IMG/VR virus record: IMGVR_UViG_3300008120_000036 | DNA from: an uncultured virus (IMG/VR IMGVR_UViG_3300008120_000036) | Lineage: Duplodnaviria > Heunggongvirae > Uroviricota > Caudoviricetes | Reading direction: 5' to 3' (one strand) | Length of the DNA: 64,000 bases | Shown: piece after piece, positions 1-44,922 of the stretch | How positions within the stretch are numbered: position 1 is the stretch's first letter | Layout: every line of letters starts with the position of its first letter | The notes under the pieces: model-generated | What the model was told of the DNA's origin: nothing | Databases searched by the model: none | What the model saw: only the letters and a program-made list of their open reading frames with translations | Made by a program: the position numbers and the translations under genes

Positions 1-141
1 AGCGGTTGTTTCATTTACATCTCTACCGCAAAGAAAACATTCACCGCGAACTTCATCTGCGATACGGCTTCTGCGTTTTCTATTTTGTTCAAACTCTTCA
101 TAAGTTGGAACAAGTGATGAATAGTCAAACTTAGTTATCAT
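1..141 (-). CDS. Hypothetical protein with a CxxC motif, truncated by the window edge
   Basis: ATG at 141-139 preceded by AAGGAGGT; reads MITKFDYSSLVPTYEEFEQNRKRRSRIADEVRGECFLCGRDV..., open to position 1; not in the ORF track. Confidence 0.7.
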   Translation of the reverse strand, partial: MITKFDYSSLVPTYEEFEQNRKRRSRIADEVRGECFLCGRDVNETTA

Positions 142-925
142 GATTACCTCCTTGGGGTAATTGGTGTTTTGTCTAAACACCATAGAAGGACATAGACCTC
201 ATAAATCTATGTCCAACTAAAGAATTTAGATTCTTACTGGTGCTATCTCCATTAACACTTATTAGACCGCCCATACTTATATCTACTCTTATCTATGAAT
301 TTGGCACTGCTACGATTTCTAGCAACCCCCGACTCTGAACACTTTGTAACTTTGTCTGCGACCTATCATTCATAAATATTCGCTCCGCTTAGAACGCTTA
401 GCGTTACATCTCGGTCAAAGCACCGATTAATGTTGGTTTGATTATTTACTCCCGATAAACCACTGTCACTGATATCCAGTTCACTCATCCTTATCTTGCA
501 GATGGGGTCTGACAGTTTGTTAACTCACTTAGTTATGTTTCCGTACTTCTGTAGTTTTAACACTAAGTCACATTTACTCCTACAGGTTCAACAGATGGGG
601 TACTTGACTACGCACTCGGTCTTTCCCTCAGCCCCAGTTCCCAATTGTCACTCCGTCTGTCACTTCGGATTGGTTATCGCACCCTTATCGGTTATGGTCG
701 TTGTTCGCTCCTAGATGCCTGTTGTCTTGAAGGCTATCGGTCTGAATCACACTCGCAAGTGAATCCGCATTCACTAGTAACAAACTAGATGTAGTCGGAT
801 TGTTCGGACTCTTAGGCAGTAACCGCGTTGGGCTGTTGGACTGCTGTTCTTTCACTCTATTTAGTTATCAATCTTCGTATGCGACCCTAACCCTTGCTCC
901 CCTGTCGGGGGGGCTAACCGTGCAT
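142..925 (-). ncRNA. Candidate large (~780 nt) structured non-coding RNA or very long structured leader
   Basis: No credible ORF; lies just downstream of the promoter at 932-960; more than 10 helices found by eye, several with G-U pairs that form only on the minus strand (e.g. 368-378/290-300, 203-214/188-199). Confidence 0.6.
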
Positions 926-931
926 GGGTCA

Positions 932-960
932 ATTATGCCTTATATATACATATGGTGCAA
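932..960 (-). promoter_or_regulatory. Sigma70-type promoter TTGCAC-N17-CATAAT
   Basis: -35 at 960-955, -10 at 937-932, exact 17-nt spacer. Confidence 0.7.
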
Positions 961-1004
961 GCATCTTCAGATACCTATTTATATGCGTGTTTTAGGCGTA
1001 TTTA

Positions 1005-1057
1005 GGGGGGGGTGGGGTCTGGGGGGTCTGGGGGGGGTCAAATCTGGGGGTCTGGGG
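1005..1057 (+). repeat. Six G-tracts with TCTGGGG(GG) repeats; G-quadruplex potential
   Basis: G runs at 1005-1012, 1014-1017, 1021-1026, 1030-1037, 1046-1050, 1054-1057. Confidence 0.8.
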
Positions 1058-1108
1058 CTATGAGGAGTGGGTCTTCTCCAGACCTATCCAGAAAAGTACT
1101 CATGGACT

Positions 1109-1490
1109 CCTGGCTGAAGTCCTGGCTGGTTTTGAGTACTTTTTAGAATCATTACGCGTAAATACTATGTAGTAACTGTGGATAACTATTAAAAAGTACT
1201 CAAAGAAGCCAGGGCGGAAGCCAGGCTGCTGAAAAGAGTGTCTTTTTATTTTGTATATACAATGTGCGTACAACTTAATATGCACTGGTGTAAATTAAAT
1301 TTAATTATGCACTGGTTTATATTTTGGTGAATTTGACTTTAGAAAAAATGTGACTAGACTTCACGAGTATCGTTTACGATTTATTAAGTACTGAGTATTA
1401 GTACTAAGTATCTATATATATAACTCTAATAATAAATACACTAGTGTAAATATGTAATACTCTATGTATCGGGTTGATTTCATCTAAACA
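1109..1490. other. Putative replication origin region
   Basis: Inverted repeat 1109-1145/1190-1225 with perfect 15-bp core TTTGAGTACTTTTTA; DnaA box TGTGGATAA at 1177-1185 between the arms; AT-rich tract ~1240-1490; directly upstream of the helicase/primase operon. Confidence 0.45.
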
Positions 1491-1502
1491 TTAAAGTATC
1501 GT
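1474..1502 (+). promoter_or_regulatory. Possible sigma70-type promoter TTGATT-N17-TATCGT for the replication operon
   Basis: Near-consensus hexamers with 17-nt spacer, ~35 nt upstream of ATG 1537. Confidence 0.4.
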
Positions 1503-1536
1503 TGAGTATAGACATTTAACGAATAGGAAAATAAAC

Positions 1537-1836
1537 ATGACAGAAACGATTGAAGTCCAGCCCCTCCCAAAAAAGACTGTTGCAAAACGCAACGGTATGA
1601 ACCCACACGGATTTCGGAATAACTCTGATTCGGCAAAGATTGTTGAGATAATGATTGCTGGTGGACTTGACCGCCAAGATATTAACGAGAAAGTTGCTGA
1701 TGCTATTACAACTGAAACTCGTAACGGACACCGTAAGAACATCCCATCATTAGTATCTGGATTACTCGCTCGTTTAGAAAAGCGCGGATATGTGATTGAG
1801 TCTTCTTGGAAATTAATCCCACCAACTAAAGAGTAA
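1537..1836 (+). CDS. Small basic putative DNA-binding (HTH-like) protein
   Basis: 99 aa; C-terminal 'SLVSGLLARLEKRGYVIE' resembles a winged-HTH recognition helix; first gene of the replication operon. Confidence 0.55.
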   Translation: MTETIEVQPLPKKTVAKRNGMNPHGFRNNSDSAKIVEIMIAGGLDRQDINEKVADAITTETRNGHRKNIPSLVSGLLARLEKRGYVIESSWKLIPPTKE

Positions 1837-1991
1837 TATGCACTGGGTGTAGATTATTTTTATATCTGCACCAGTGAAGATATGTGTTTTAGGTTGCGAT
1901 TGATAATTCAAAATGCTTAGATAGTTTTCTAGACGACCAAGGTGGTTGCAAGGTCTAGAATGAATTACTGGAGAGCGAAAGGGAATTATCA

Positions 1992-3272
1992 ATGTCAGTT
2001 AGTCCAGAAATATATTTAATTTCATCTATCCTTCGTGATGGCGATATGCAAATTGCTATGCAAAGGGGTGTTAACAATAATCAATTTCATGCCTGTCCTG
2101 ATGAATGGGAGTGGGTATCTAATTACTATCTGAAGCACCGCAAAGTTCCAACTAAGAATGCGTTTAGACAACAGTTCCCTGAGTTTGCACTGAAAGCCGT
2201 TAATGATACGGCGCACTATGCAGATGAAGTAAGAAAAGCACACGCTCGGTTTATGTTAACAAGTGTGATGCGTGATTCTGCGGATTACATTGCAGATGGA
2301 AATATTGACCAAGCGGTTAAAACTTTACATTCACAAATCATTAATATCTCGGCTGCAATTGGCGATACTAATAATGACAGCGACATTATGACTTCATGGC
2401 AAGATACTTTTGAAGAAGTAGCAAAGCGAGTTGACCGTGTTAAGGAACATGGAATGTCGGGTATTCCAACTGGATTTACAACACTTGATGAGCGCACTGG
2501 CGGACCACAACCAGGACATATGTGGATTGTAGGAGCGCGATTAGGTCAAGGTAAGTCTTGGACAATGATGCGAATGGCAACTGCTGCGGTTATGTCGGGA
2601 TACAGCGTTCAATATGATGCATTAGAACAGACTAGGGCTGAGGTTGCAATGCGTATCCATACTTTTTTATCTTCGGGTATCGGTAAAGATGTATTTAGAA
2701 ACCTTGACTTAATGATGGGTAGAAACTTTGAGTTAGATGCCTATAGGGAATTCCTGCATAGTTTGAAAGACCATGTGCAGGGTCGTCTTCATGTATCCGA
2801 TACTTCTCGCGGAAGAGTATCTACTTTGACTGTTGCTGCCCAGATTGAACGCAATAAGCCAGATATCGTATTTATTGATTACCTAACACTCATGGAAAAA
2901 TCTGGTGAAGGTGATTGGAAATCTATTTCTAAGTTATCGGGTGAAATAAAGAACCTTGCTATGGAATATCAAGTTCCTATCGTGGCTGCATCTCAATTGA
3001 ATAGAACAATGGGAATGGGTACGAAAGAACCTGCTGGTGCGGAAGCACTATCTCAGTCGGATTCTATTGGTCAAGATGCTGATGCAGTATTAACTATGCG
3101 CCAGACCTCACCATCTGTTATTCAGATGAAAATGGCTAAATATCGGCATGGACTTTCGGGATTCAAATGGTATTGCGAGTTTAAGCCCACGCAAGGTGTC
3201 TTTCGTGAAGTTACTTATGACCAAGCCCTTGCTATCAAAGATACTGATGACGATACTGAAGAGGCTGAATGA
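1992..3272 (+). CDS. dnaB: DnaB-like replicative helicase
   Basis: Walker A GARLGQGKS; IVFIDYL; SQLNR; DSIGQDAD; KYRHG motifs. Confidence 0.95.
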   Translation: MSVSPEIYLISSILRDGDMQIAMQRGVNNNQFHACPDEWEWVSNYYLKHRKVPTKNAFRQQFPEFALKAVNDTAHYADEVRKAHARFMLTSVMRDSADYIADGNIDQAVKTLHSQIINISAAIGDTNNDSDIMTSWQDTFEEVAKRVDRVKEHGMSGIPTGFTTLDERTGGPQPGHMWIVGARLGQGKSWTMMRMATAAVMSGYSVQYDALEQTRAEVAMRIHTFLSSGIGKDVFRNLDLMMGRNFELDAYREFLHSLKDHVQGRLHVSDTSRGRVSTLTVAAQIERNKPDIVFIDYLTLMEKSGEGDWKSISKLSGEIKNLAMEYQVPIVAASQLNRTMGMGTKEPAGAEALSQSDSIGQDADAVLTMRQTSPSVIQMKMAKYRHGLSGFKWYCEFKPTQGVFREVTYDQALAIKDTDDDTEEAE

Positions 3273-3448
3273 TGCCTGTTAAAAAAGTAAAGATGAAAGC
3301 ATCAAAGAAAAAAGAAGATGACTTTTTTATGGTGATACCTATGAAAAATTGGCAAGATAAAGCGTTGAGATTTTTTGCTTATTTAATCGGGTTTCGCGCT
3401 ACTGGAAAGATTTATGTAATTACTATCAATAAGGAATCATTAAAATGA
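3269..3448 (+). CDS. Hypothetical 59-aa protein
   Basis: Manually translated (MMPVKKVKMK...NKESLK); ATGA overlaps with both the helicase stop and the primase start. Confidence 0.6.
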   Translation: MMPVKKVKMKASKKKEDDFFMVIPMKNWQDKALRFFAYLIGFRATGKIYVITINKESLK

Positions 3449-4317
3449 GCGATTATTCAAAGATAGTTGAATCCACTTTTCAGATAGGTCTGCGTTCGGG
3501 TGATGAATGGATGTGCCGTTGTCTATGGCATGATGACTCTTCTGCATCCCTACAGTTCAATATCCGTAAAGGTGTTTATGTCTGTTTCGGCTGTGGGGTA
3601 AAAGGCAATATCAAATCACTCATGCGCTTTCTTGGAAGGCGTTTTGAAGATATCGGTACGGATATTGCGGATATCACTGCCAAGTTAGATGCGCTTGATG
3701 AGCAAGCAGGTAAGTCAACTAAGTTAAAACCATTGCCTGAATCTATATTGAAGAGATATGACTTTCCTACCGAGTACTGGCATAGTCGCGGATTTACTGA
3801 TGCCACTATCAAAGCGTTTGACTTGGGATATGACCCTATTGAAGACGAGGCTACTATTCCTGTCCGTACTAGCAGTGGGGATTTGATTGGAACTATCAAG
3901 CGTAGATTAAGTGCTGATTATGGTCCGAGATATATGTATCCAAAAGGTTTTCCGCGAAAGACCTCATTATTTGCTTCATGGCTTGTCGCTAAGACAATTA
4001 CGGATGAAGTGGCAGTGACTGAAGGTGCGGTTGACTCAATGACTTTGTGGCAGATTGGCGTTCCTTCGGTAGCACAATATGGAAGTGCTATATCTAGAGA
4101 GCAAGTTTCCCTGCTACGCCGTCTTGGTATTAATAGATTAATTTTGTTTTACGATAATGATAATGCTGGCGAAAAGGCTCTAGATACAGCACTAGAACTA
4201 ACGAGAGATTTCTTGATTCGTGTCGTAGAATATAAGAAGGGCGACCCTAAAGACCCTAACGGTTTTGATTCTGATACATTACGGAATCGCATAGAGTTTG
4301 CTAGGTTGGTCTTATGA
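3445..4317 (+). CDS. dnaG: DNA primase (CHC2 zinc finger + TOPRIM)
   Basis: CLWHDD...CFGCG zinc finger; TEGAVD and FYDNDNAG TOPRIM motifs; adjacent to helicase. Confidence 0.92.
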   Translation: MSDYSKIVESTFQIGLRSGDEWMCRCLWHDDSSASLQFNIRKGVYVCFGCGVKGNIKSLMRFLGRRFEDIGTDIADITAKLDALDEQAGKSTKLKPLPESILKRYDFPTEYWHSRGFTDATIKAFDLGYDPIEDEATIPVRTSSGDLIGTIKRRLSADYGPRYMYPKGFPRKTSLFASWLVAKTITDEVAVTEGAVDSMTLWQIGVPSVAQYGSAISREQVSLLRRLGINRLILFYDNDNAGEKALDTALELTRDFLIRVVEYKKGDPKDPNGFDSDTLRNRIEFARLVL

Positions 4318-4346
4318 CCTTTCGCTCTCCAGCGACCTAGCAAATA

Positions 4347-4389
4347 GAATCCCTCCAGTACACCACCACCACACCTACTGGGGGGATTC
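4347..4389. terminator. Hairpin between convergent primase and endolysin genes
   Basis: GAATCCCTCCAGTA...TACTGGGGGGATTC stem; second stem TTGCTAGGT...ACCTAGCAA at ~4298-4342. Confidence 0.6.
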
Positions 4390-4403
4390 GCCTTTGCTAA
4401 TAC

Positions 4404-4949
4404 TTATTTCTTTTTAGATTTATTTAATTCTTCACGCAACAATTTGATTTCAGCCTCTAGTTTATTTAACCTAGCATTGTAATCAATTTCTGCATAAGGC
4501 TTTTTTAATTTTGGTGCTGCAACACTAGCCTTTATTTGATTAACTAGTTTAGGTTGATTCATCCACCAGAACCAAGGAGATGTGTCGTCACCGTGACCTT
4601 GTTTAATACTTATATGCAGATGTTTGCTATGCGAATTACTGCCACTGTACTTTCTATTGCCTTCTTTTGCTCTTGCCTTAGACCAAATTTTACTATTAAA
4701 AATTAAGTAATCAACGCGTTCATCTTCTTTTAACTTTTCAAATATTACGGCGCAATCTATTCCATTCTTCGGGTCATGAGTTAAATCAACAGCGTGACCA
4801 GTATTGTGGTCTGAATCTGGACTTGCTTTTTGATGTGCAAGAGATGGTAATAATCCGTCAGATGCTTTCTTTCTTTGTGGCGATATTGCAGTTGCTTGTC
4901 GTAATACTGCTAATGCAGCAGGAGTTGCTTTCTTAACTAACGGTTTCAT
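4404..4949 (-). CDS. Endolysin, M15/LAS-type zinc peptidase
   Basis: SDHNTGHAVD (H-x6-D) and HSKHLHIS motifs; at the end of the late operon. Confidence 0.7.
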   Translation of the reverse strand: MKPLVKKATPAALAVLRQATAISPQRKKASDGLLPSLAHQKASPDSDHNTGHAVDLTHDPKNGIDCAVIFEKLKEDERVDYLIFNSKIWSKARAKEGNRKYSGSNSHSKHLHISIKQGHGDDTSPWFWWMNQPKLVNQIKASVAAPKLKKPYAEIDYNARLNKLEAEIKLLREELNKSKKK

Positions 4950-5157: not shown

Positions 5158-6552
5158 TTAGTTTGGATATCTAATAATTACGATACCAGAGCCACCGTTG
5201 TAACCACCAGTACCACCGTTTTCTCCACCTCCGCCACCACCACCTGTATTAGCAGTACCAGCACTTCCAGCAATTCTTGTAGCACTACCAGTACGATTTG
5301 CACCATTACCACCGCCACCTAAACCACCTGTACCAGCATTCAAACTATAATCTTCATCTCCTGCTCCGCCACCACCTGCATAGTAATAAAAACCGCCTAC
5401 AAGTTGACCAGTATTAGTTGCATAACCAAATGAATTAATAGCAACTCCGTTACCTCCGTTGCCACCATGTTGACCAACAGCACCAGCACTACCAGCAGCA
5501 CCAGCACCTCCACCTCCACCAGACTTACCTTGACTTCCATTACCACCTGCAAAACCTTGACCTAAAGTACCAGAGCCACCAGTAGTCGTACCTGCAACTT
5601 CTGAGTATCCACCTCCACCGCCTGAACCACCAGTAAGTCCTACGCCAGTAGAAACATTTCCTCCACTACCAACATAACTTCCTCCACCACCGCCACCTAC
5701 AGACTGAATATTCATAAAACCAGATGATGAACCAGAAGTACCAGCACCAGTTACATTTGAATTTCCTGAGCCACCACTACCTACAATTGCTGAAAATGAA
5801 ACGCCAGCATTTAATTTAAGTTTACCTTCAAGACCACTACCTCCACCAGTAGCCTCTGCTGTACATCTTAGTCCACCAGCACCACCACCTGAGTTAATTC
5901 TTGAACCACCACCACCTCCAGCAACTACTAAATACTCTAAATTTGTGATATTTTCTAATGCGGTGAAAGTTCCACTAGAAGTAAATGTGTGATAGGTATA
6001 TTGACTATCTGCGGTGATAGTTCCACCAGATGCTCGGTGTGCGCCAATACCATATAGAGTGACTGTTGAATGTTGAACCCAATTACCTGAACTGGGAACA
6101 ATTGCAATTGATGTTATTGCTGACGAATTAGCCCATAAACCAGAGTTAATAGCAAGTATTTTTACTGTTGTGGAATTTTCTACAACTGTATCTATAGATA
6201 TAGATTTAGTATTACTACTAGTATAATTTGAAATATATGCTTCTGAGTTAGAAAAAGTAGAAGCGGTTGTTATACTAGAATTTCCAAAAAACCATTTAAT
6301 TCCAGTAGATGATTGGCTTGCGCTTGCTGGACTACTACCAATTCCATAAAGCATTTTTTCTGAGTAGTTAGTAGTTGTACCATTAAATTGCAATATAGCA
6401 TCAGAATATCCACTAGATTCAGTTCCAGTATTACGAACAGAAGCGACAATTTTTAAGTCATTATAGTTTTGTGGAATATTAGTAAATTGAATCGTAGAAG
6501 AGCCACCACTACCAACGGTAATAGTTTGAATAGGAACATAACCTTGTGCCAT
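5158..6552 (-). CDS. Glycine-rich tail fibre/adhesin-like virion protein (cassette B, gene 3)
   Basis: Beta-rich N-domain + Gly-rich domain (YLVVAGGGGG...GGSGIVIIRY); distal to the baseplate genes. Confidence 0.7.
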   Translation of the reverse strand: MAQGYVPIQTITVGSGGSSTIQFTNIPQNYNDLKIVASVRNTGTESSGYSDAILQFNGTTTNYSEKMLYGIGSSPASASQSSTGIKWFFGNSSITTASTFSNSEAYISNYTSSNTKSISIDTVVENSTTVKILAINSGLWANSSAITSIAIVPSSGNWVQHSTVTLYGIGAHRASGGTITADSQYTYHTFTSSGTFTALENITNLEYLVVAGGGGGSRINSGGGAGGLRCTAEATGGGSGLEGKLKLNAGVSFSAIVGSGGSGNSNVTGAGTSGSSSGFMNIQSVGGGGGGSYVGSGGNVSTGVGLTGGSGGGGGYSEVAGTTTGGSGTLGQGFAGGNGSQGKSGGGGGAGAAGSAGAVGQHGGNGGNGVAINSFGYATNTGQLVGGFYYYAGGGGAGDEDYSLNAGTGGLGGGGNGANRTGSATRIAGSAGTANTGGGGGGGENGGTGGYNGGSGIVIIRYPN

Positions 6553-7907
6553 TAGACTGGATACCTCACAATCACAATTCCAGAGCCACCTAAGCCATCT
6601 CTTGCTCCACCACCGCCACCAGTATTAGCAGTACCAGATAAGCCAGCACCAGTATTACCATATCCTCTACCTCCACCACCAGTACCACCAGCACCGCCAG
6701 CGTAAGTGCCACCTTCAGCACCGCCTCCTCCACCACCAGCATAGTAACCGCTTACACCAGTGCCAGTTGCAGTTGCCCAAGTTGAGTGAGCATTAGAACC
6801 AATACCACCATAGCCACCAGCACGATTATCACCAAAACCACCTTCTCCAGCACCACCAGCACCACCACCTCCAGCACCAGCAGCATTTCCATTACCAGCA
6901 TAACCAGTTCCACCGTTGTATCCCTCAACAGGTGTATAAGAACCTTCGTTTCCAAATCCTTCAACTGCTGGAGATGCTTGACCATTATTATTATCTCTGC
7001 GATTACCTGCACCACCACCAGAACCACCATTACCGCCTGAAAATAGTACTGTACGCCCTGCTACTGTTGCATTACCACCTAAACCTCCACCAGTAGATGA
7101 AAATGTAGTCATTCCAGAACCAGAGATTGATGAGTTACTTCCTTTATTATTAAGAGCAGCACCAGCACCAACAGTAATAGTGTAATTTGTTGAAGTAAAA
7201 CTTTGGTTTGTTGCTGACCTGTATCCACCAGCACCACCACCTCCATAATAAGTATGGCTTCCACCTCCACCGCCTCCTGCAACAACTAGATAATCTACAG
7301 TTAGAGAAGAATTAGGAGTAAATGCTCCAGAAGTTGTAAACGCATGATACCAATAAGTGCCATCAGTTGTAATAATATCTCCACCAGTTGCTTTCGGTGA
7401 TTTTGCTGCTTCAATACCGTATAAAGTAAATATAGAGCCTGATTGAATAATTGCAGTTCCATCAAAACCTTTTATTTCAAGTGAAGTTATAGGATTAGTA
7501 TTACGCCATAAACCTGTGTAGGCTTCTACCCCACCTTCTGAGTTATATCTATTTAACCATGTTTTATATGTTGTATTATTGGAATAATTCATTAAATTTA
7601 ATGTAATTGTTTGTCTAGTGCTTGAACCCTGAGCCGTGACATCAGCAGTAATACGAGCCTGATTTGCATTATTACCACGACCACTAGATGCTGCGCTTCC
7701 AGTTGATGAAACTCTAACATGAGAATAATTGCTACCAGTATCCCCATTTAATCTAATAAACAAAGAAGAGTTAGAAACAGTTAAAGAATAATTTACTTGT
7801 AATATTAGGTCGGTATAATTTTTCGGTAAATTAGAAAATGTTACAGATGCCGTATTACTACTTAAAGTTTGACTAGCAATTTTTATATGTGTTTTACCTG
7901 CTGGCAT
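6552..7907 (-). CDS. Glycine-rich tail fibre/adhesin-like virion protein (cassette B, gene 2)
   Basis: Same architecture; ends GGSGIVIVRYPV. Confidence 0.7.
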   Translation of the reverse strand: MPAGKTHIKIASQTLSSNTASVTFSNLPKNYTDLILQVNYSLTVSNSSLFIRLNGDTGSNYSHVRVSSTGSAASSGRGNNANQARITADVTAQGSSTRQTITLNLMNYSNNTTYKTWLNRYNSEGGVEAYTGLWRNTNPITSLEIKGFDGTAIIQSGSIFTLYGIEAAKSPKATGGDIITTDGTYWYHAFTTSGAFTPNSSLTVDYLVVAGGGGGGSHTYYGGGGAGGYRSATNQSFTSTNYTITVGAGAALNNKGSNSSISGSGMTTFSSTGGGLGGNATVAGRTVLFSGGNGGSGGGAGNRRDNNNGQASPAVEGFGNEGSYTPVEGYNGGTGYAGNGNAAGAGGGGAGGAGEGGFGDNRAGGYGGIGSNAHSTWATATGTGVSGYYAGGGGGGAEGGTYAGGAGGTGGGGRGYGNTGAGLSGTANTGGGGGARDGLGGSGIVIVRYPV

Positions 7908-8527
7908 TATATACTCCTAATTCCATACAAAGCAAAATTTGAATGTTGCATAAAATTTACTAAACAAGTAATTCTTAATCTTGAAATTGATGCTGTTGTA
8001 TTGTAAAAACTACTTGCAAGTAAAATTGCTCCTAAATCTCCATTGGTTGGTCCGCCGTTAGTATCAAAACCAGAAAGTGCTTTTACTGTCTTATTTTTAT
8101 TTGAGTTTGAATAATCTATAATATCTATTATTCCAGAGCCGAAATTTGATGGATGAGTATAGGCAGCACCTCCACTAACATCTGTTATTAAAGCAATATA
8201 TGGATTGTTTGTTGCAGCGAGCGCAGATGAACCGTTACCATACAGCCAATGTGCGTTAGTTGTATTTATATTACCGCTATTTATTTGCACAGCAATAACA
8301 TCACCGCTATTACCATTGTAATCTCTAGTTGACCTAGCAGTAAATCTTATCTGTAAATGAGTATAGTTTTGTGGGATATTATCAAAAATAATTTCTGAAG
8401 CACCAGAACTGCCAACTACTACAGTCGCAATACTCTCAAAATAACCTGGAAATGTTTCACCATCCCACAACTTAGACGACTTAGCACCAGTTGCGATACT
8501 GGAGTTACTAAATCGTCTAATAGCCAT
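7907..8527 (-). CDS. Virion fibre-associated beta protein (cassette B, gene 1)
   Basis: IPQNYTHLQIR and FALYGI motifs; paralogous to 11887-12474 and to the fibre N-domains. Confidence 0.65.
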   Translation of the reverse strand: MAIRRFSNSSIATGAKSSKLWDGETFPGYFESIATVVVGSSGASEIIFDNIPQNYTHLQIRFTARSTRDYNGNSGDVIAVQINSGNINTTNAHWLYGNGSSALAATNNPYIALITDVSGGAAYTHPSNFGSGIIDIIDYSNSNKNKTVKALSGFDTNGGPTNGDLGAILLASSFYNTTASISRLRITCLVNFMQHSNFALYGIRSI

Positions 8528-8562
8528 GATTCAATCCTTTGTACAGAAAGTAAGGTTTATTT

Positions 8563-8799
8563 TTAGAGTACGAGTACTTCTGCTTCTTCAGCAGTAAGCG
8601 GTTCACCAGCGACAAGTTTTGCCTTTGCTGATGCTTTGAGTGCTGCCTTTGCTGCTTCTGCTTCTTCGCGTGCTACACGGTCTGCTTCTGCTTGTGCAGC
8701 CATTTGGTCACGCTCGGCAATTTCAGCAGGTGTCAATGGAACAATCTTTGTTTGTCCAGTGGCACAGTCAACTACAACCTTAGTCAATTGCTCGCTCAT
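8563..8799 (-). CDS. Small fibre-associated protein (possible chaperone)
   Basis: 78 aa, helical, LTPAEIAER motif; lies between the fibre cassettes. Confidence 0.55.
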   Translation of the reverse strand: MSEQLTKVVVDCATGQTKIVPLTPAEIAERDQMAAQAEADRVAREEAEAAKAALKASAKAKLVAGEPLTAEEAEVLVL

Positions 8800-9176
8800 T
8801 ATTCAGTTACCTCATTTTCTGTCCATGTAATGTTCTCTTCATCCCAAGTGTAGGATTTTCCGTCACTTGGATAATCAATTGGTGCTTCCCATAGGCATGA
8901 AGATTCATCTAGATTCCATGATGGGAATGGTTTTGGTGGGATGAATGCATCTCGTTGTGCATCATAAGTATATCCAATACCTGCATAATTCTTGCGTAAT
9001 GGAGTTCCACCGTTTTGGTGTACACCACCTACTGTGTTGTAACTTGTCTTAATCCATGTACCGCCAAGTCCGAGGTCATTCGCTAGAAATTCTTGACCCC
9101 TATTTTCTTGGTCGTCACCGACAACAAGAACGCGAACAACTGTGTTATCCGCATCTATTTCCGCGAAGTGCGCCAT
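8799..9176 (-). CDS. Conserved fibre-associated phage protein
   Basis: MAHFAEI...RKNYAGIGYTYD...DAFIPPKPFPSW...WEAP pattern, commonly seen beside Gly-rich fibres. Confidence 0.6.
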   Translation of the reverse strand: MAHFAEIDADNTVVRVLVVGDDQENRGQEFLANDLGLGGTWIKTSYNTVGGVHQNGGTPLRKNYAGIGYTYDAQRDAFIPPKPFPSWNLDESSCLWEAPIDYPSDGKSYTWDEENITWTENEVTE

Positions 9177-9208
9177 TGATTTCTCCTTTTTTATCTTACT
9201 TTGTATTT

Positions 9209-10597
9209 CTATAGAACTTGCTCTTTAGTATAACGAATAATTACTATTCCTGAACCGCCTACCATACCGTTACCTGCTCCACCACCAGTGTTCGCAGTAC
9301 CGTTAGCACCGTTAGAACCTCCACCTGCTCCACCACCACCTAATCCTGCTGCACCACCAGTACCGTTAGAAGCACCACCGCCTCCACCTGCAAAGTAGTA
9401 AACTCCAGAAGATAATTGTCCAGAACTTGTTGCAAGACCCCAAGATGAATATGCGGATGAACCTATTCCACCTGCTCCACCAGTTCCTGCACCAGATGCA
9501 TTGCCACCAGCACCACCAGCACCACCACCTCCACCACCTGCCTGTGGTTCAACTTGAAATACACCACCACCATTACCACCGTTATTTCCTTGACCGCTTG
9601 TACCAGAGCCTCCAGTACCACCACCTAATCCAGAACCAGTATTTACAGCAGATTGTCCTCCACCACCGCTACCACCAGAACCACCATCTTTCTCGGCAGT
9701 AATTAATGCAGAAGAGTCAGAACCACCGCCACCACCGCCACCACCTAAAGCAACAGTACTACCAAGTGATGAATTACTGCCTCGTAAACCTCTTAGATTA
9801 GAACCTGGATAAGCACCACCTGCACCAATAACTACAGGAATTGTTCCATTTAATTTAACATTAGTAAATCCTAGTAAGCCACCAGCACCGCCACCTCCAC
9901 CGTAGAAACCAGAAGAGTTTGACGCTCCACCAGAACCACCGCCAGCAATAACAAGGATATCTGCGGATAAAGTATTACCAGATATATCTAGTGTTCCACT
10001 AGAAGTAAACTTTCGGTAATAATAATTTGAATCTGAAGATAGTGTTCCACCAGTTACATAAGACTTTCTATTATTAATAGGTGTTCTTTGCGCTCTTATA
10101 CCGTAAATAGTAAAAGTGGTGTTTGTCATAAAAGAAGCATTCGCTGCAAAAGAGAAAGAAGTTACTGGTTTTGTAAAATTCCATTGAGTACCAACTATAT
10201 TTTGATAAGCAAGGGTTGTACTATTGTTTTCAGATACTCCAAAAGTAGATACGACTTTGCCAAACCCTACTGTATAATTAGAGATATAAACATCACAAAC
10301 ACCAAAAAGATTTGAAGTAGAAGTATTTCCATTAATTCTAGAAATCCAGTTGTTTCCATAAGAAGCAGTGCTACGACTAAGAAGAGTGCTGCCACTTGAT
10401 TCTATATTTATCCAGTTAGTTGAAGTTTCACCATTTAATGCCATGTACAAGCCGTCTTCTTCAGTGCCTCTATTAGTTCTAGCAGATATTTTTAATAACA
10501 AATCAGTATATCCTTGTGGAATATTAGTAAACTCAACTACTGCTTGGGTGCTAGGAACTCTATAAGTAGCAATCTTCGTCATTGTATCTAAACTCAT
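9209..10597 (-). CDS. Glycine-rich tail fibre/adhesin-like protein (cassette A, gene 3)
   Basis: Paralog of 5158-6552. Confidence 0.7.
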   Translation of the reverse strand: MSLDTMTKIATYRVPSTQAVVEFTNIPQGYTDLLLKISARTNRGTEEDGLYMALNGETSTNWINIESSGSTLLSRSTASYGNNWISRINGNTSTSNLFGVCDVYISNYTVGFGKVVSTFGVSENNSTTLAYQNIVGTQWNFTKPVTSFSFAANASFMTNTTFTIYGIRAQRTPINNRKSYVTGGTLSSDSNYYYRKFTSSGTLDISGNTLSADILVIAGGGSGGASNSSGFYGGGGGAGGLLGFTNVKLNGTIPVVIGAGGAYPGSNLRGLRGSNSSLGSTVALGGGGGGGGSDSSALITAEKDGGSGGSGGGGQSAVNTGSGLGGGTGGSGTSGQGNNGGNGGGVFQVEPQAGGGGGGAGGAGGNASGAGTGGAGGIGSSAYSSWGLATSSGQLSSGVYYFAGGGGGASNGTGGAAGLGGGGAGGGSNGANGTANTGGGAGNGMVGGSGIVIIRYTKEQVL

Positions 10598-11886
10598 ACT
10601 GGATACCTCACAATCACAATTCCAGAACCGCCATTATATGCATATTTAGTAGTACCACTACCTCCACCGCCACCACCAGTGCGTGCTGTTCCATCTGAAC
10701 CACCTGAAATATAATCTCCAGTACCTCCACCGCCAGTACCACCACTACCACCAGGACTAGTATCACCACGACCACCGCCACCTCCACCACCATAAGTTAC
10801 GGAAGAACCAGTAATTGCTACCGCTACACCATTACCACCATTACCTGCTGCCCCATTAGCAACTGCATTAGTACCAGCAGCACCAGCACCTCCACCGCCT
10901 CCACCACAACCCATGTTCACATTTGCAGCACCATTACCACCATTAAATCCTTGATTAGATTGACCAGTACCAGCAGTTATGTAAGATGCACTACCTCCAC
11001 CACCTGAGCCACCATTTTCTTTATCGCTAGCACCGCCAGCACCTCTACCTCCACCTAGTGAGGTAATAGATGAAAAAACTGAATCTGAACCTGATGTAGC
11101 ATATAGATGGGATGTTGTATATCCACCTCTTCTGCCACCTGCACCCACTGTAACAACATGATTAGTTGGGGTTAATGTTAATGCTGTACCTAATCCAGCA
11201 GTTCCTCCGCTTGCAGTCACTGTAGAGCGAACACCACCAGCACCACCACCTCCGATATTTCCACCGCCTCCACCTGCAACAACTAGGTAGTCAACTCCTG
11301 CAAGTTCTTCAACTGGTGTAAATAAACCACTATTCCAAAATTCGTGTATCCAATATCCACTTGATTGATAAACATAATCTCCACCATAAGCCTTTGGGCT
11401 ACCACCAGAAATACCGTATAAATCAATAGATGTTCCTATACCAAATAATGTTGAACCACTAGCAAAAAACTGCAATGTATGTATTGCTTCAGTATTTCTC
11501 CAAAGTTGTGATATACCACCTACATAGCCAGTAGTAAGCGGATTAGATGCAAGAGATAAACAAGACTTAAAAATATTTGGATTAGAATAACTCATAAAAT
11601 GAACTATAGATTGTCCAGGACTACCTGGGCCTCCAATAGTAATAGCATGATAAGTTTGACCAGTACCTCTATCAGAAGCAGGAGTAGAACCATTACCATA
11701 TAGTCTAGTTCCTGAATAAATACTTGAAGAATTATTGTTAATATACACACCAACATCATTTTGTGTAGATGTTGAGCCGTAAAATACAACAACTAAATCT
11801 TCATAAGCCTGACTAATATTAGAAAATGTTATTGAGTTTTGATTAGAAGTTAAAACTATTGATTGAATTGGTGTATAGGTAGCCAT
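10594..11886 (-). CDS. Glycine-rich tail fibre/adhesin-like protein (cassette A, gene 2)
   Basis: Paralog of 6552-7907; same C-terminus GGSGIVIVRYPV. Confidence 0.7.
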   Translation of the reverse strand: MATYTPIQSIVLTSNQNSITFSNISQAYEDLVVVFYGSTSTQNDVGVYINNNSSSIYSGTRLYGNGSTPASDRGTGQTYHAITIGGPGSPGQSIVHFMSYSNPNIFKSCLSLASNPLTTGYVGGISQLWRNTEAIHTLQFFASGSTLFGIGTSIDLYGISGGSPKAYGGDYVYQSSGYWIHEFWNSGLFTPVEELAGVDYLVVAGGGGGNIGGGGAGGVRSTVTASGGTAGLGTALTLTPTNHVVTVGAGGRRGGYTTSHLYATSGSDSVFSSITSLGGGRGAGGASDKENGGSGGGGSASYITAGTGQSNQGFNGGNGAANVNMGCGGGGGGAGAAGTNAVANGAAGNGGNGVAVAITGSSVTYGGGGGGGRGDTSPGGSGGTGGGGTGDYISGGSDGTARTGGGGGGSGTTKYAYNGGSGIVIVRYPV

Positions 11887-39996: not shown

Positions 39997-40926
39997 CTAC
40001 GCTCCCATCATCATAAAGATATCTTGTAATCCTGCACCTGCTGAAGCAGCAGTACCCCATTCAACTCCAGTTCCAGTTGATTTTAATACCTGACCGCTAG
40101 TTCCAGTACCACCACCAGCAGTTAAAGTTCCAGTCAATACAGCAGAAGAAAGAGTTTTATTTGTAAGTGTTTGTGAATCACTTGTACCTACAACAGTTCC
40201 AGTAGGTACTGCTTTTTGTGCAGCAGAACCATCAATATTTCCAGAAGCATTTGAGAGAACAAAACTAGATGCTGCAACTCCAGAAATCGTATTGTCGTCA
40301 GTACTGATTGTCTTATTAGTTAAAGTTTGTGAGCCAGTTTCAGTTACATATCCAGTTAGCGAAGGTATATCGCTAGTAAAAGCAACAGTTCCGCTTGCAT
40401 CCTTGAATGTTATTGTTCTATCGGCAGTAGGGTCAACTACAGTAAGAGTTGTTTCAAACGCATCAGCAGTAGTACCTTCAAAAACAACTTGATTGTTTAC
40501 ATTAACTGCTGTGCTATTAATTGTTGTAGTTGTTCCATTTACAGTTAAGTCGCCTGACAAAGTAAGACTTGTACCAGATATCGCTCCAGTAAAAGTTGCT
40601 CCTGATAATGGTGCGTATGAAGATAAATCTGAAGTTAATGCAACAGTTCCAGTTGCATCAGGAAGAGTAATAGTCCTATCTGCGGTTGGGTCAGTTACTT
40701 GAAGTGTAGTTTCGTATGAATCAGCAGTAGCACCTTCAAATATGATATTGGTATCAAATTGGTTTCCACCTGCTGCATATTGCAATGAGTTCCAAGCAGT
40801 TGAACCATTACCAATTTTGATTTTGAATGTATCACTTTCAAATCCAATTTCACCAGCAGCAAGTGTTGGGTTGGCTGAAGTCCATTGTGAGGCAGTACCT
40901 CGTCTGACTTGAATTGTTGCTGACAT
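39997..40926 (-). CDS. Fibre protein (Mtd/hyaluronidase-like N-terminus)
   Basis: IQVRRGTASQWTSANPTLAAGEIGFESDT.KIKIGNG; FEG.TAD..ETTL...DPTADRTIT and QTLTNKT repeats. Confidence 0.75.
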   Translation of the reverse strand: MSATIQVRRGTASQWTSANPTLAAGEIGFESDTFKIKIGNGSTAWNSLQYAAGGNQFDTNIIFEGATADSYETTLQVTDPTADRTITLPDATGTVALTSDLSSYAPLSGATFTGAISGTSLTLSGDLTVNGTTTTINSTAVNVNNQVVFEGTTADAFETTLTVVDPTADRTITFKDASGTVAFTSDIPSLTGYVTETGSQTLTNKTISTDDNTISGVAASSFVLSNASGNIDGSAAQKAVPTGTVVGTSDSQTLTNKTLSSAVLTGTLTAGGGTGTSGQVLKSTGTGVEWGTAASAGAGLQDIFMMMGA

Positions 40927-41796: not shown

Positions 41797-43587
41797 TTAG
41801 CCTACGACTACTACCTTATATGCGTTAGATGATGGAGCAGAAGCGAATGCAACAGTTACTGTATTATCAGTTGCGTGCTTAACATCAGCGAATACTACTT
41901 CATAATCGCTTGAATTCTTGTAAACAGTAACAATTACATCACGAGTACCAAGATTGTGTGTAACTGTATAACTAAGAGTACTACCATCACCAATTGCTTC
42001 TGAAAACTTAGTTGTAAATCCAAGGCTGCTCTTAGCACCAGAAGTAGTTGTTGCTCCAGTACCACCATTTGCTACTGCAAGTGTTCCAGTTACAGTTGAA
42101 GAACCAAGGTCAACAGAAGCATCAGCCATCTTGGATGAGGTAACTGAATCTGTTGCTAGTTGTGTATCAGTAATTCCACTATCAGCAACCTTAATTCCGC
42201 TTGCACTGATTGATATTGTTCCACCATCAGCCTGAGCAGAGATTGTATTGCCAGACTTTGTAAGACCATTACCAGCAGTAATTTGTCCTGCGCCAGTGAA
42301 CTGTTGGAATGTAAGTGCTGTGCTACCAATTGTGATTGGATTATCTGTTGTAAGAATCCAACCTGAGTTTTGGTTTGTAGTACCTTCTTCAACAAATGTG
42401 AATAAACCTGCTGTTACTTCAGCATTTCCATCAGCATCAGTTGCACGAGTAGGTGCTCCAGACTCATTAACTGTGTAAATACCGTTTTCAGTACCAGTAC
42501 TTTGGTTCTTAATAAGGATTCTATCGCCAGTAACAAGAGTTACACCATCAATTGTGCTTCCGTTAGCGAATGAAGTATTGAATGTTCCGTTTGTAGTAGT
42601 TGCAACGCGTACTGAAGCCTTAACATCAAGTCCGAGTCGTGCTGCATCTACATAAGCCTTTGTTGCAGCATCTTGTGCATCTACTGGGTCAGCAAGACTT
42701 GTAATCTTTTGGCTGTTAAGTGATAGTGAAGAAGTTGGTGCAGCAAAATCTGTTAGTTTGTTATTTGTTAGCGCAACTGTACCGCTTGCGTTTGGAAGAG
42801 TAATTGTACGGTCAGCAGTTGGGTCAGTTACATCAAGTGTTGTTTCATAATCATCTGCTGTTGCACCCTCAAATACGATTGAAGTTGGAACACTTACTGT
42901 TCCAGTAAATGAAGGATTATTAATTGGGGCTTTGTTATCCAATTGTGTTTGGATAGCAGAAGTAACACCATCTACATAGTTAAGTTCAGTAGTAGAAAGT
43001 GTTGCTCCGTCTAAAATATTTAATTCGGATGCACTTACTGTCGCACCATCAAGAATATTTAGTTCCGCAGTAGAGGCTGTAATACCATCAAGTACATTGA
43101 TTTCTAAATAATCGGCAGTAACACCATCAAGGATATTGAGTTCTGCTGCTGTGGAAGTAATAGCAGTGCCAGAAATCTGTAAAGTTGTAGCATTTACTTC
43201 TCCTGCTGCACCATAAACTACCGCTTTGCTATTTACAATCGTTCCTGCTATTGAACCATCTACTAAATTAAGTTCTGATGCTGTAGAGGTAACGCCATCA
43301 AGAATGTTAAGTTCAGCAGTACTTGAAGTTATTCCATCTAGGACATTAAGTTCCGCAGTGCTAAGGGTTGCGCCATCAAGTATATTGATTTCAGCAGCAT
43401 CAGCAGTTACTCCGTTAAGACCTACTGCTTCCCATACTGTTCCGTTATAGACACGGATTTCATTAGATACGGTGTTGTAATAAATTTGACCCGATACTGG
43501 GCTTGCAGGGTCAGAAGCAAGGTTTTGGATACGAGCGTTCTGTAACTCGTTCTTAACGAGGTCTAGATTTACTAAAAACTTACTCAT
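41797..43587 (-). CDS. Fibre protein with tandem T..ELNILDG repeats
   Basis: About 9 E[LI]N[IVLY][LV]DG repeats; DAATKAYVD; GDRILIKNQ..ENGIY; VTHNLGT. Confidence 0.75.
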   Translation of the reverse strand: MSKFLVNLDLVKNELQNARIQNLASDPASPVSGQIYYNTVSNEIRVYNGTVWEAVGLNGVTADAAEINILDGATLSTAELNVLDGITSSTAELNILDGVTSTASELNLVDGSIAGTIVNSKAVVYGAAGEVNATTLQISGTAITSTAAELNILDGVTADYLEINVLDGITASTAELNILDGATVSASELNILDGATLSTTELNYVDGVTSAIQTQLDNKAPINNPSFTGTVSVPTSIVFEGATADDYETTLDVTDPTADRTITLPNASGTVALTNNKLTDFAAPTSSLSLNSQKITSLADPVDAQDAATKAYVDAARLGLDVKASVRVATTTNGTFNTSFANGSTIDGVTLVTGDRILIKNQSTGTENGIYTVNESGAPTRATDADGNAEVTAGLFTFVEEGTTNQNSGWILTTDNPITIGSTALTFQQFTGAGQITAGNGLTKSGNTISAQADGGTISISASGIKVADSGITDTQLATDSVTSSKMADASVDLGSSTVTGTLAVANGGTGATTTSGAKSSLGFTTKFSEAIGDGSTLSYTVTHNLGTRDVIVTVYKNSSDYEVVFADVKHATDNTVTVAFASAPSSNAYKVVVVG

Positions 43588-43599
43588 GTAGAACTCCTC

Positions 43600-43989
43600 T
43601 TAGTTGAGATACGCCTTGCCCGAAAAAGGCGCACTGAAAGTCACAACTAGTGTATCGGTACTTGTGTATGTAACGCTCCCATAAACCTTCGTGTCTGCAC
43701 TGTCAACCACTGACACTGCTGGCTTCTTACCAAGATTATGAGTAATTGTCCAAGTTGCAGAAGGAACTGACTGTGTAAAAGTAAAAAATGAGTCTTCTCC
43801 AGCATCTCCTTTTGGTCCTTGCGGTCCAACTGGTCCTTGTACTCCTTGAATACCTTGCGGACCAGTTGCTCCTTGCGGACCTTGCAAGTTAGAGATAACA
43901 ATATTAGTTCGTGGTTCTTCATTTACGATTACATTAACTGCATTCGTAAGTTCTTGAATCACAATATAGGTTTGGTTACGCGTTGTCAT
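43600..43989 (-). CDS. Collagen-like repeat virion protein
   Basis: Gly-X-Y run GPQGATGPQGIQGVQGPVGPQGPKG; WTITHNLG domain. Confidence 0.75.
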   Translation of the reverse strand: MTTRNQTYIVIQELTNAVNVIVNEEPRTNIVISNLQGPQGATGPQGIQGVQGPVGPQGPKGDAGEDSFFTFTQSVPSATWTITHNLGKKPAVSVVDSADTKVYGSVTYTSTDTLVVTFSAPFSGKAYLN

Positions 43990-44333
43990 TAGTAAGTGAC
44001 TCCTCTATTCACAAGCAGTCTTCCTTCTAGTACACGATTTACTTCGCCACCACCTGATATAAGTTCAAGGTCATAAACATGGCGACCAACTGGGAGAACA
44101 TCTGTTTCAGAAGATGACATTGTGATTGTTACAGTTCCAGCAGTTCCACCTAAAGCAATTTTTCCATTACTTGTAGTCAAGGTTTTTAGAACAGCACCTG
44201 TAGATGAGTTCTTACGGATTTTCATTTCTGCGGTGTATCCAGTTAAGTTCCAAGGATTTTCATTTGTCTTAATAGTAAAAATAAGACGGAAGACAGAACC
44301 CTTATCTACTTCCATAGAGTATTTACCACTCAT
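43989..44333 (-). CDS. Small Ig-like/BppU-like virion protein
   Basis: WNLTGYTAEMKIR...YDLEL...RVLEG. Confidence 0.6.
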   Translation of the reverse strand: MSGKYSMEVDKGSVFRLIFTIKTNENPWNLTGYTAEMKIRKNSSTGAVLKTLTTSNGKIALGGTAGTVTITMSSSETDVLPVGRHVYDLELISGGGEVNRVLEGRLLVNRGVTY

Positions 44334-44553
44334 AATTGCTCCTTGAACCTAGAAATACCAATAACAGAACCCACGCTAACCCATTTTACGATTAAGAGTA
44401 TAACTTATGGTTTGGTGACTGGCTTATCTTCAGATATTTCATCTGAAGACCAAGCGGTATTCTGTTTTACAGTTGGTTTTTGACTACCCTGATTCTTTTG
44501 TATCGCCTCTTGAAGTTTCTTTACGACTTCTTCAAGGTTTTCTATCCGTTCGG

Positions 44554-44922
44554 TCAACGAACACCTTCCATTAGTAAATCTGCCAAGTCGTCTATTACAT
44601 AGGCTCTGGTCAATAAGTCTTGGCTTTCCTTGACCTTTTCCATATCGTTGGGATTAATGATATCCGCAATATTGCTACCTAATAAGTGCCATAAGTTTTT
44701 ATTTGCTTCAGCACCTAAGCGGAGAGATATTTCTAGAAGTTCTTCCGCTACAACAGCCAACGCAATATCAGCACATTCCAGTGGTGATAATCCATTGTTT
44801 TCGTGCATCTCAATGTACAACTGCTCGCCAATAGTAGTACGCAAGCGTTCGCGCATAGTCAATGCGTTATTCTCTTTCATAGTAGAAATGATAGCGTTAG
44901 AATTCAATGCCGACCCAAACAA
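44554..44922 (-). CDS. Hypothetical protein
   Basis: ORF on the operon strand; start uncertain. Confidence 0.5.
   Translation of the reverse strand: MFGSALNSNAIISTMKENNALTMRERLRTTIGEQLYIEMHENNGLSPLECADIALAVVAEELLEISLRLGAEANKNLWHLLGSNIADIINPNDMEKVKESQDLLTRAYVIDDLADLLMEGVR

Follow-up and report, generated by a model that had tools for sequence, protein, structure and literature searches.

Large noncoding RNAs encoded by phages are already known, among them GOLLD and ROOL (which we take to be Rfam families RF01998 and RF03087, respectively) and a transcript of the Vibrio phage ICP1, and their function is unexplained. Long 5′ leaders, for their part, carry terminator hairpins or hairpins that mask the Shine-Dalgarno (SD) sequence and act as attenuators, or 5′ stem-loops that stabilize the mRNA. 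In the ICP1 study, a transcript of ~800 nt without an open reading frame (ORF) is reported as the most abundant transcript of this phage (Barth et al. 2020, PMC7567579), and GOLLD and ROOL are described as often lying near tRNA genes in phage genomes (PMC7567579). Here, we analyze an ORF-free stretch at positions 142–960 of a 64,000-nt stretch of DNA from an uncultured virus of the Caudoviricetes (IMG/VR record IMGVR_UViG_3300008120_000036); this whole 64-kb stretch, which we refer to as the window, represents most of one tailed-phage genome. The original prediction, made from the sequence alone, placed here a highly structured, large noncoding RNA with its own promoter, of the kind of GOLLD and ROOL and possibly of a new class. 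We find that its noncoding character, the promoter-like site and its presence in RNA libraries stand, whereas pervasive structure and the proposed kinship do not.

The stretch is a real, expressed, noncoding element, and the sequence family that it represents is new and rare: only three other copies were found, two in a metagenome collection (L016 and L017) and one in IMG/VR (G001). By its features, it would belong to a known kind, that of large phage-encoded RNAs or long leaders, with a function that we infer. The reading that we prefer, with a probability of roughly 0.42, is that of an early long leader or attenuator whose upstream product accumulates. A cmscan search of the whole window against Rfam 15, which includes the GOLLD, ROOL, and intron models, gave no matches at the gathering score. 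At an e value of 10 or less there were only three unrelated weak matches in positions 1–1600 (sR6, mir-1277, and TtnuCD22), and at an e value of 0.5 or less there were none in G001 and in the loci of four relatives. Because none of these searches gave a relevant match, the stretch is not GOLLD, ROOL, an intron, or another curated family. Group I and group II introns were rejected also from the position of the stretch, which has a promoter on one side and a ribosome-binding site on the other and does not interrupt an ORF. The element is like GOLLD and ROOL in size class and in its presence in phages, and like GOLLD in its lake origin, but it differs in having no covariance-model match at the thresholds tried, no adjacent tRNAs (by ARAGORN, the 64-kb window has 0 tRNA genes), and no ornate, unusually stable fold over most of its length.

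The ICP1 transcript is likened to our element by features alone, and no sequence relation is expected. As in ICP1, an ORF-free gap of ~1 kb in an otherwise dense genome gives rise to an RNA of ~0.65–0.8 kb that appears in RNA data and is without tRNA neighbors. The ICP1 transcript, however, lies by the lysis cluster and its abundance was measured in culture, whereas the element in the window would head an early leftward operon beside replication genes and is known from its presence in environmental RNA-library contigs alone. With long 5′ leaders the element shares a promoter, untranslated RNA, stable hairpins, and a stem that overlaps the SD sequence before the start codon, and RNA-contig ends hint at a shorter upstream species. 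It differs from them in having no recognizable ligand or protein sensor and no U-tract terminator, and to our knowledge it would be several times longer than known leaders.

All six frames of 142–935 contain TAA, TAG, and TGA, with 11–25 stops per frame, and no stop-codon reassignment opens a frame. The longest ORFs encode 72 and 87 aa on the plus strand and 56 aa on the minus strand, and none of the five longest matches a Pfam model, confirming that the stretch has no credible ORF. The minus strand is indeed purine-rich, as had been claimed (A 33.2%, G 25.1%, and 58% purine overall), and has more G than C as do coding strands in the window. This resemblance to a coding strand, together with a few short ORFs behind SD-like motifs, is what a hidden coding region, either for small proteins or for a gene in another genetic code, would have in its favor. 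We consider such a region highly improbable given the three stop codons in every frame and the lack of Pfam matches among the five ORFs; moreover, the 56-aa and 47-aa ORFs that persist in G001 differ there only by amino-acid-changing substitutions, which is not coding-like, and the GUG of the best SD-linked ORF (11 codons) is lost in G001.

Genes in the window are tightly packed, in agreement with the original description of a gene-dense genome, except for the gap between 141 and 1537, of which the noncoding stretch occupies the left ~800 nt. The entire interval 142–1536 is without a credible ORF and is thus an ORF-free gap of the ~1-kb class in a dense genome, as with the ICP1-type transcript. 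The promoter-like site TTGCAC-N17-CATAAT is present as claimed on the minus strand at 960–932. The stretch shares its strand with the downstream gene, is contiguous with its ribosome-binding site, and carries hairpins of regulatory type there, as a 5′ leader or attenuator does. That the transcript runs directly into this ribosome-binding site had been overlooked, and at least formally the stretch is a 5′ leader. As a correction to the boundaries first proposed, the downstream coding sequence starts with an ATG at 141–139 and not at 142, and its SD sequence GGAGG lies at 151–147 on the minus strand. The features of the element are as follows, with z scores relative to shuffles:

955–960, minus strand: −35-like hexamer TTGCAC, read from the sequence and the same in L016 and L017
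932–937, minus strand: −10-like hexamer CATAAT, 17 nt past the −35-like hexamer, with a predicted start near 925–923
883–930, minus strand: 5′-proximal hairpin UUAGCCC / CCCC-GACA-GGGG / GGGUUAG with GCAUG-like outer pairs, found in minimum free energy (MFE), centroid, and consensus folds
581–872, minus strand: sequence-conserved 5′ half, 276 of 292 positions identical to G001; z −0.73 (925–628) and alignment z −0.23
263–580, minus strand: variable middle with covarying helices, 60% identity to G001; alignment z −3.02
381–396, minus strand: conserved island with hairpin CGUUCU-AAGC-GGAGCG, 15 nt identical to G001 within the 60% region
142–262, minus strand: five tandem hairpins up to the ribosome-binding site (258–240, 235–220, 219–183, 182–162, and 161–143)
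143–161, minus strand: last hairpin AUUACC/GGUAAU, which contains part of the SD sequence AAGGAGG (151–147) and ends one base before the start codon
1–141, minus strand: start of the first downstream gene (ATG 141–139), which encodes a 92-aa CxxC protein seen at full length in L016 (247–525)

Contigs from RNA libraries are what identifies the element as expressed. In a k-mer index, 20 runs of 15 studies contain the stretch or part of it, and the six metatranscriptomes among the 24 listed runs hold shares of 0.29–0.61 of the sampled words of 100–1100. Contigs of three of these six metatranscriptomes, from three studies, and of one DNA run were placed on window positions 1–4500. All three metatranscriptome libraries contain contigs that are identical (0 differences) to parts of 271–907, so that the anticipated presence in metatranscriptomes was found in the form of contigs. 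These RNA contigs, for which the strand is not shown, are the following:

X15: 271–706 and 697–907
X16: 276–599 and 602–817
X17: 332–597 and 754–904

The RNA contigs stop at 904/907 in two studies and at 271/276 in two studies, with no loose end listed, and the DNA contigs, which cover 1–1005 and 1597–4417, continue through to 1005 and across 172–597. Such stops hint weakly at RNA ends near 905 and 271, the right-hand one falling ~20 nt short of the start that the −10 box predicts. RNA contigs cover neither 1–270 nor 908–4500, except for an unrelated 44-nt match at 3278–3321, and the uncovered part is no evidence that the flanking genes are silent or that the RNA exceeds them in abundance.

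The claim that the region is highly structured was compared with shuffled sequences. Over the whole of 142–935, 3 of 20 shuffles fold equally well, and the MFE z score is −1.27 for either strand. Neither segment 925–628 (z −0.73; 46 of 200 shuffles equally good) nor segment 560–263 (z −1.19; 21 of 200) stands out, and 262–142 is the sole exceptional segment (z −4.58; 0 of 200). The claim is supported in part, for the hairpin array and, through the comparative signal described later, for the middle, and is not supported for the 5′ half or the region as a whole. All the helices that had been listed were found in the sequence, but the whole-region comparison does not bear out that there are more of them than expected by chance. 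Likewise, the 11-bp long-range helix 378–368/300–290 is present in the window but by the alignment reading is not kept in G001, and RNAalifold pairs 376–367 elsewhere. Helices spotted by eye in a long stretch thus need a shuffle control. Within the array the MFE and centroid folds coincide; hairpin 219–183 has a 12-bp core at 214–188, and G001 retains the last hairpin, its loop being 2 nt shorter there. The 5′-proximal hairpin is invariant in the three sequences that cover it and gives no evidence from covariation.

The rarity of the family is apparent from the searches for further copies. Relative to the window, L016 has substitutions at 6 of 819 positions, and L017 has 10 differing positions and a 2-nt insertion. 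Three pattern scans of IMG/VR returned G001 only, the rest (including L165 and L166) being chance matches, and a scan of the metagenome collection returned 11 loci of which L016 and L017 are real and nine are chance matches. All five loci from a collection of species-representative genomes were chance matches, BLASTN against 50,697 GenBank phage records gave no match, and nhmmer and BLASTN analyses of 79 IMG/VR loci that contain a relative of DnaB, as well as of L007 and L008, identified no homolog.

Positions 1–33322 of G001 are 99.8–100% identical to window 30506–64000 (33 kb), and window 139–872 corresponds to G001 43920–44648. The element itself is part of a replaced block. The two genomes, ~100% identical over 33 kb, have different early leftward modules, and a sharp mosaic boundary lies near the element. 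Identity to G001 is 94.5% over window 872–581, falls to 60% of aligned positions with 58 gapped columns over 580–231, and rises to 97.7% (85 of 87 aligned positions) over 230–142. The first downstream gene is replaced in G001 by a different, 47-aa gene, and the second downstream protein is 52% identical to its G001 counterpart. Thus, the 5′ half and an 89-nt 3′ island are kept far better than the adjacent coding sequence, and the location of this island between a 60% region and a nonhomologous gene is hard to explain by breakpoints alone. At position 806 of the minus-strand RNA, in the 94.5% half, the window has C, L016 and L017 have U, and G001 has A; this position is opposite a C in a predicted small hairpin and is apparently a free mismatch site.

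In L017, the 12-bp hairpin of the array carries double compensatory changes at 212/190 (A-U to U-A) and 209/193 (U-A to C-G), and these two double changes account for four of the five private substitutions of L017. In G001, CUAG...CUAG is changed to CAAG...CUUG near 787–773 in the 5′ half, and ACUUAGU/ACUAAGU is changed to ACUUGGU/ACCAAGU, both compensatory. When the four sequences are folded together by RNAalifold, two-sided changes affect 23 of 223 consensus pairs, compared with 6.0 ± 2.2 in shuffles (0 of 500) and 0–2 in slid controls, a count that is biased upward as the consensus fold derives from the same four-sequence alignment; most of these 23 pairs fall in the variable middle. As a less biased control, the consensus folding energy of the window and G001 was compared with that of 60 column-shuffled alignments, with the following result:

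560–271: z −3.02 on the minus strand, where 0 of 60 shuffles score better, and −1.29 on the plus strand
260–142: z −3.93 on the minus strand and −2.81 on the plus strand
870–560: z −0.23 on the minus strand and −0.86 on the plus strand

Because the first two segments score so far below column shuffles, the variable middle and the hairpin array appear, from the aligned sequences, to show a selected fold that is better on the minus strand. Selection on minus-strand RNA structure, as originally proposed, is thus consistent with the strand difference in alignment scores and the compensatory changes, but does not extend to 870–560.

These comparisons bear on whether the stretch is a functionless transcribed spacer, in which conservation would reflect breakpoints at ~580 and ~230 and the RNA contigs would come from read-through or DNA. 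Such a spacer would accommodate the evident mosaicism of the block, a folding energy that is unremarkable for most of the stretch, and the restriction to two known lineages. We nevertheless regard it as distinctly unlikely, as two breakpoints no more than ~100 nt apart would be required to produce the 89-nt island at 97.7%, and as compensatory changes in a hairpin, an alignment fold that beats column shuffles on one strand only, and matches at 100% identity in three RNA libraries from three studies all speak against it.

The same junction is found in related phages. All six annotated relatives (DnaB 43–52% identity) have a divergent arrangement with leftward small genes and an AAA+ ATPase (annotated as "porphyrin biosynthesis" or "AAA-ATPase") and a rightward DnaB-primase pair, and in four of the six the junction holds an unannotated gap of 1054–1178 nt. 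The unannotated gaps are as follows:

Chidiebere: 1167 nt
ChisanaKitsune: 1162 nt
UBSmoodge: 1178 nt
GMA6: 1054 nt
Cantare: 661 nt
DalanDe: 403 nt

The Chidiebere stretch is 86–100% conserved in 11 records (nine phages), and nine of these 11 records have no annotated feature there; at least the first 1180 nt of the IMG/VR contig G003 (DnaB 54%) are without the codon-position GC bias of its genes. Given that these stretches from Gordonia phages (Chidiebere, ChisanaKitsune, UBSmoodge, and GMA6) and G003 lie at the same junction, have a similar length and are on the same strand as the leftward genes, they are counterparts of the element by position. No sign of homology was found: neither nhmmer nor BLASTN gave a match between the window element and the Gordonia, Cantare, and G003 stretches, and local alignment scores of 23–27 equal the shuffled means of 24.6–25.9 (100 shuffles). 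Shared motifs seen by eye (AGUGACAG, GUGCGUA..AAGUACC, and GAAYCUG) were no better than chance by local alignment. The consensus fold of the Gordonia stretch in the sense direction is weakly better than shuffles (z −1.06, −1.76, and −2.82). An 860-nt unannotated part of the Chidiebere stretch (L022 4797–5660, minus strand of the locus), conserved in nine Gordonia phages, contains an internal duplication (CACGCGAGCUAYGAACGG ... GGGAAC units) and is preceded by TTGACT-N17-TATTGT as judged by eye. In another IMG/VR relative (L094, DnaB 48%), positions 2510–2800 lie within ~1 kb upstream of DnaB without an ORF of at least 60 aa, and hold a ~70-nt module in two copies, each a stem enclosing two small hairpins, with no Rfam match at an e value of 0.5 or less. 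Neither this RNA nor the Gordonia junction stretch turned up in a search of the literature without supplements, and two Gordonia phage papers do not mention the latter in the passages searched (PMC4524720, PMC5559632).

In the early leader reading, the stretch would be the noncoding head of an early leftward transcription unit. RNA polymerase would start near 925 on the minus strand at TTGCAC-N17-CATAAT, and a leader of ~650–780 nt would run toward the 92-aa gene and, as suggested by synteny with G001, an operon for an AAA+ ATPase and a vWA protein. Most molecules would be ended or cut near 270, ahead of the five-hairpin array, and a stable noncoding RNA of ~650 nt (~925–271) would remain. The array, with part of the SD sequence in its last stem, would then determine the extent to which the message behind it is read, retained, or translated.

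Several findings weigh against this reading in addition to the upward bias in the count of two-sided pair changes. The best-conserved part, the 5′ half, has no fold better than shuffles, and the leader model leaves its conservation unexplained. Only two lineages are effectively known, one comprising the window, L016, and L017 and the other G001, so that every instance of covariation amounts to one event. Near 271 there is no intrinsic terminator that carries a U tract, and hairpin 396–381, which is terminator-like by scan, has a U-rich tail that is not kept in G001. The promoter-like site matches the sigma-70 consensus at 8 of 12 positions and was not listed by a promoter scan with a threshold of at least 4/6 matches per hexamer. 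The contigs from the RNA libraries give no strand, level, or true ends, depth is low (2.6–4.3), the ends near 905 and 271 are weak, and an RNA library can contain DNA. Among relatives, the long gap is short or absent in two of the six annotated phages (Cantare and DalanDe) and several low-GC IMG/VR relatives have no long gap at the junction, and two of the 11 Gordonia records have a hypothetical protein annotated in the matching stretch.

Some of the same evidence would suit a free-standing, trans-acting large noncoding RNA of a new class (~650 nt), which would act on host or phage components as a decoy, a scaffold, or part of a ribonucleoprotein, in the manner proposed for GOLLD, ROOL, and the ICP1 transcript, and for which the downstream link would be incidental read-through. 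The RNA-library contigs lie within 271–907, without the hairpin array or the gene, the conservation of the 5′ half at 94.5% next to a protein at 52% is as expected if primary sequence is functional, and a near-invariant, unfolded 5′ half is explained better this way than by a leader. The ORF-less ~800-nt ICP1 transcript (PMC7567579) provides a precedent. On the other hand, no fold better than shuffles was found over 925–263, no Rfam family matches, there is no known partner, only four copies were found in the collections searched, and complementarity of at least 14 nt to the rest of the window or G001 does not exceed chance. Antisense targets sought in the window and G001 were limited to matches of 12–15 nt at chance level. 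We hold a trans-acting RNA to be possible, if rather unlikely; it and the leader reading are not mutually exclusive. A bolder form of this idea, which we find doubtful, is that the element is the first member of a new large phage RNA class, in which the near-invariant, weakly folded, purine-rich 5′ half of a ~650-nt early product would do the work, for instance by serving a host factor as a decoy or as a platform, and of which the unrelated ~1.1-kb stretches of Gordonia and other actinobacterial phages would be fast-evolving functional counterparts.

The remaining part of the gap, the spacer 960–1537, contains short direct repeats of three families along with a number of inverted repeats: GGGGGTCTGGGG occurs three times (1013–1057), AAAAGTACTCA occurs in direct and inverted copies (1092–1204), and a word like TATGCACTGGTGTAAATT occurs three times (1279–1452). 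It also contains one perfect DnaA-box 9-mer (1177–1185), and the DNA-run contigs break at 1005 and 1597, around this repeat-rich region. The spacer looks like an operator or origin region. A cluster of DnaA boxes was rejected, with 25 sites of no more than one mismatch found compared with 21.8 expected. As the promoter adjoins this region, with its repeats, inverted repeats, and DnaA-box 9-mer beside DnaB and primase, the RNA could be an origin-linked transcript that primes or activates replication, like ColE1 RNA II or T4 origin transcripts. We consider this improbable: transcription of the RNA leads away from the repeats and not into them, sites resembling the DnaA box show no enrichment, and there is no sign of an R-loop. 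An internal promoter-like site of the element at 469–441, which matches the consensus at 10 of 12 positions, was dropped as it is not kept in G001.

Beyond the spacer, on the plus strand from 1537, lie a 99-aa gene, DnaB, and primase. On the leftward side the 92-aa CxxC protein has no Pfam or PHROG match, and the operon continues in G001 to an AAA_5 ATPase and then a vWA protein. A link of the latter to Y RNA and Ro60 was ruled out because Pfam gives AAA_5 and VWA only, with no TROVE domain. Elsewhere in the window, Pfam models are matched for capsid, portal, large terminase, baseplate J, DNA polymerase III alpha, RecA, DnaB, and primase. DnaB and the large terminase have 43–56% identity to those of the Brevibacterium phage Cantare and the Gordonia phages Chidiebere, GMA6, DalanDe, and UBSmoodge, and the runs that contain the stretch are labeled as freshwater, lake water, and, in one case, subsurface metagenome. 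Because of the freshwater labels and this relatedness, we infer that the host is a freshwater actinobacterium.

Two further regions of the window are of note. A 309-aa ORF at 39997–40926 on the minus strand has an N-terminal Mtd_N (major tropism determinant) domain, and short repeats of 73–76% identity connect 40361–40740 and 42767–42879. The diversity-generating retroelement suggested by Mtd_N was rejected, as no reverse transcriptase was found in the 40 window ORFs scanned, a set that left out ~22 smaller ORFs (at least 100 aa), nor in the 11 ORFs of G001 that were scanned. At 5158–11886 on the minus strand, four paralogous ORFs of ~430–464 aa, each of which ends in a Gly_rich_2 domain, follow in succession and are probably tail-fibre or receptor-binding variants.

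The element has been seen in natural lake RNA libraries of several studies. If the bolder reading of a new large RNA class is true, an RNA of ~650 nt would accumulate in infected freshwater bacteria to a level sufficient for assembly from community RNA in several lakes, and a giant early leader RNA would be a general device of this phage clade. The conservation pattern separates modules that can be tested, namely an invariant 5′ half with an ordinary fold, a varying middle that covaries, and a fixed hairpin array at the ribosome-binding site. Given that cultivable relatives, the Gordonia and Brevibacterium phages, have an ORF-free stretch at the same place, the question is accessible at the bench.

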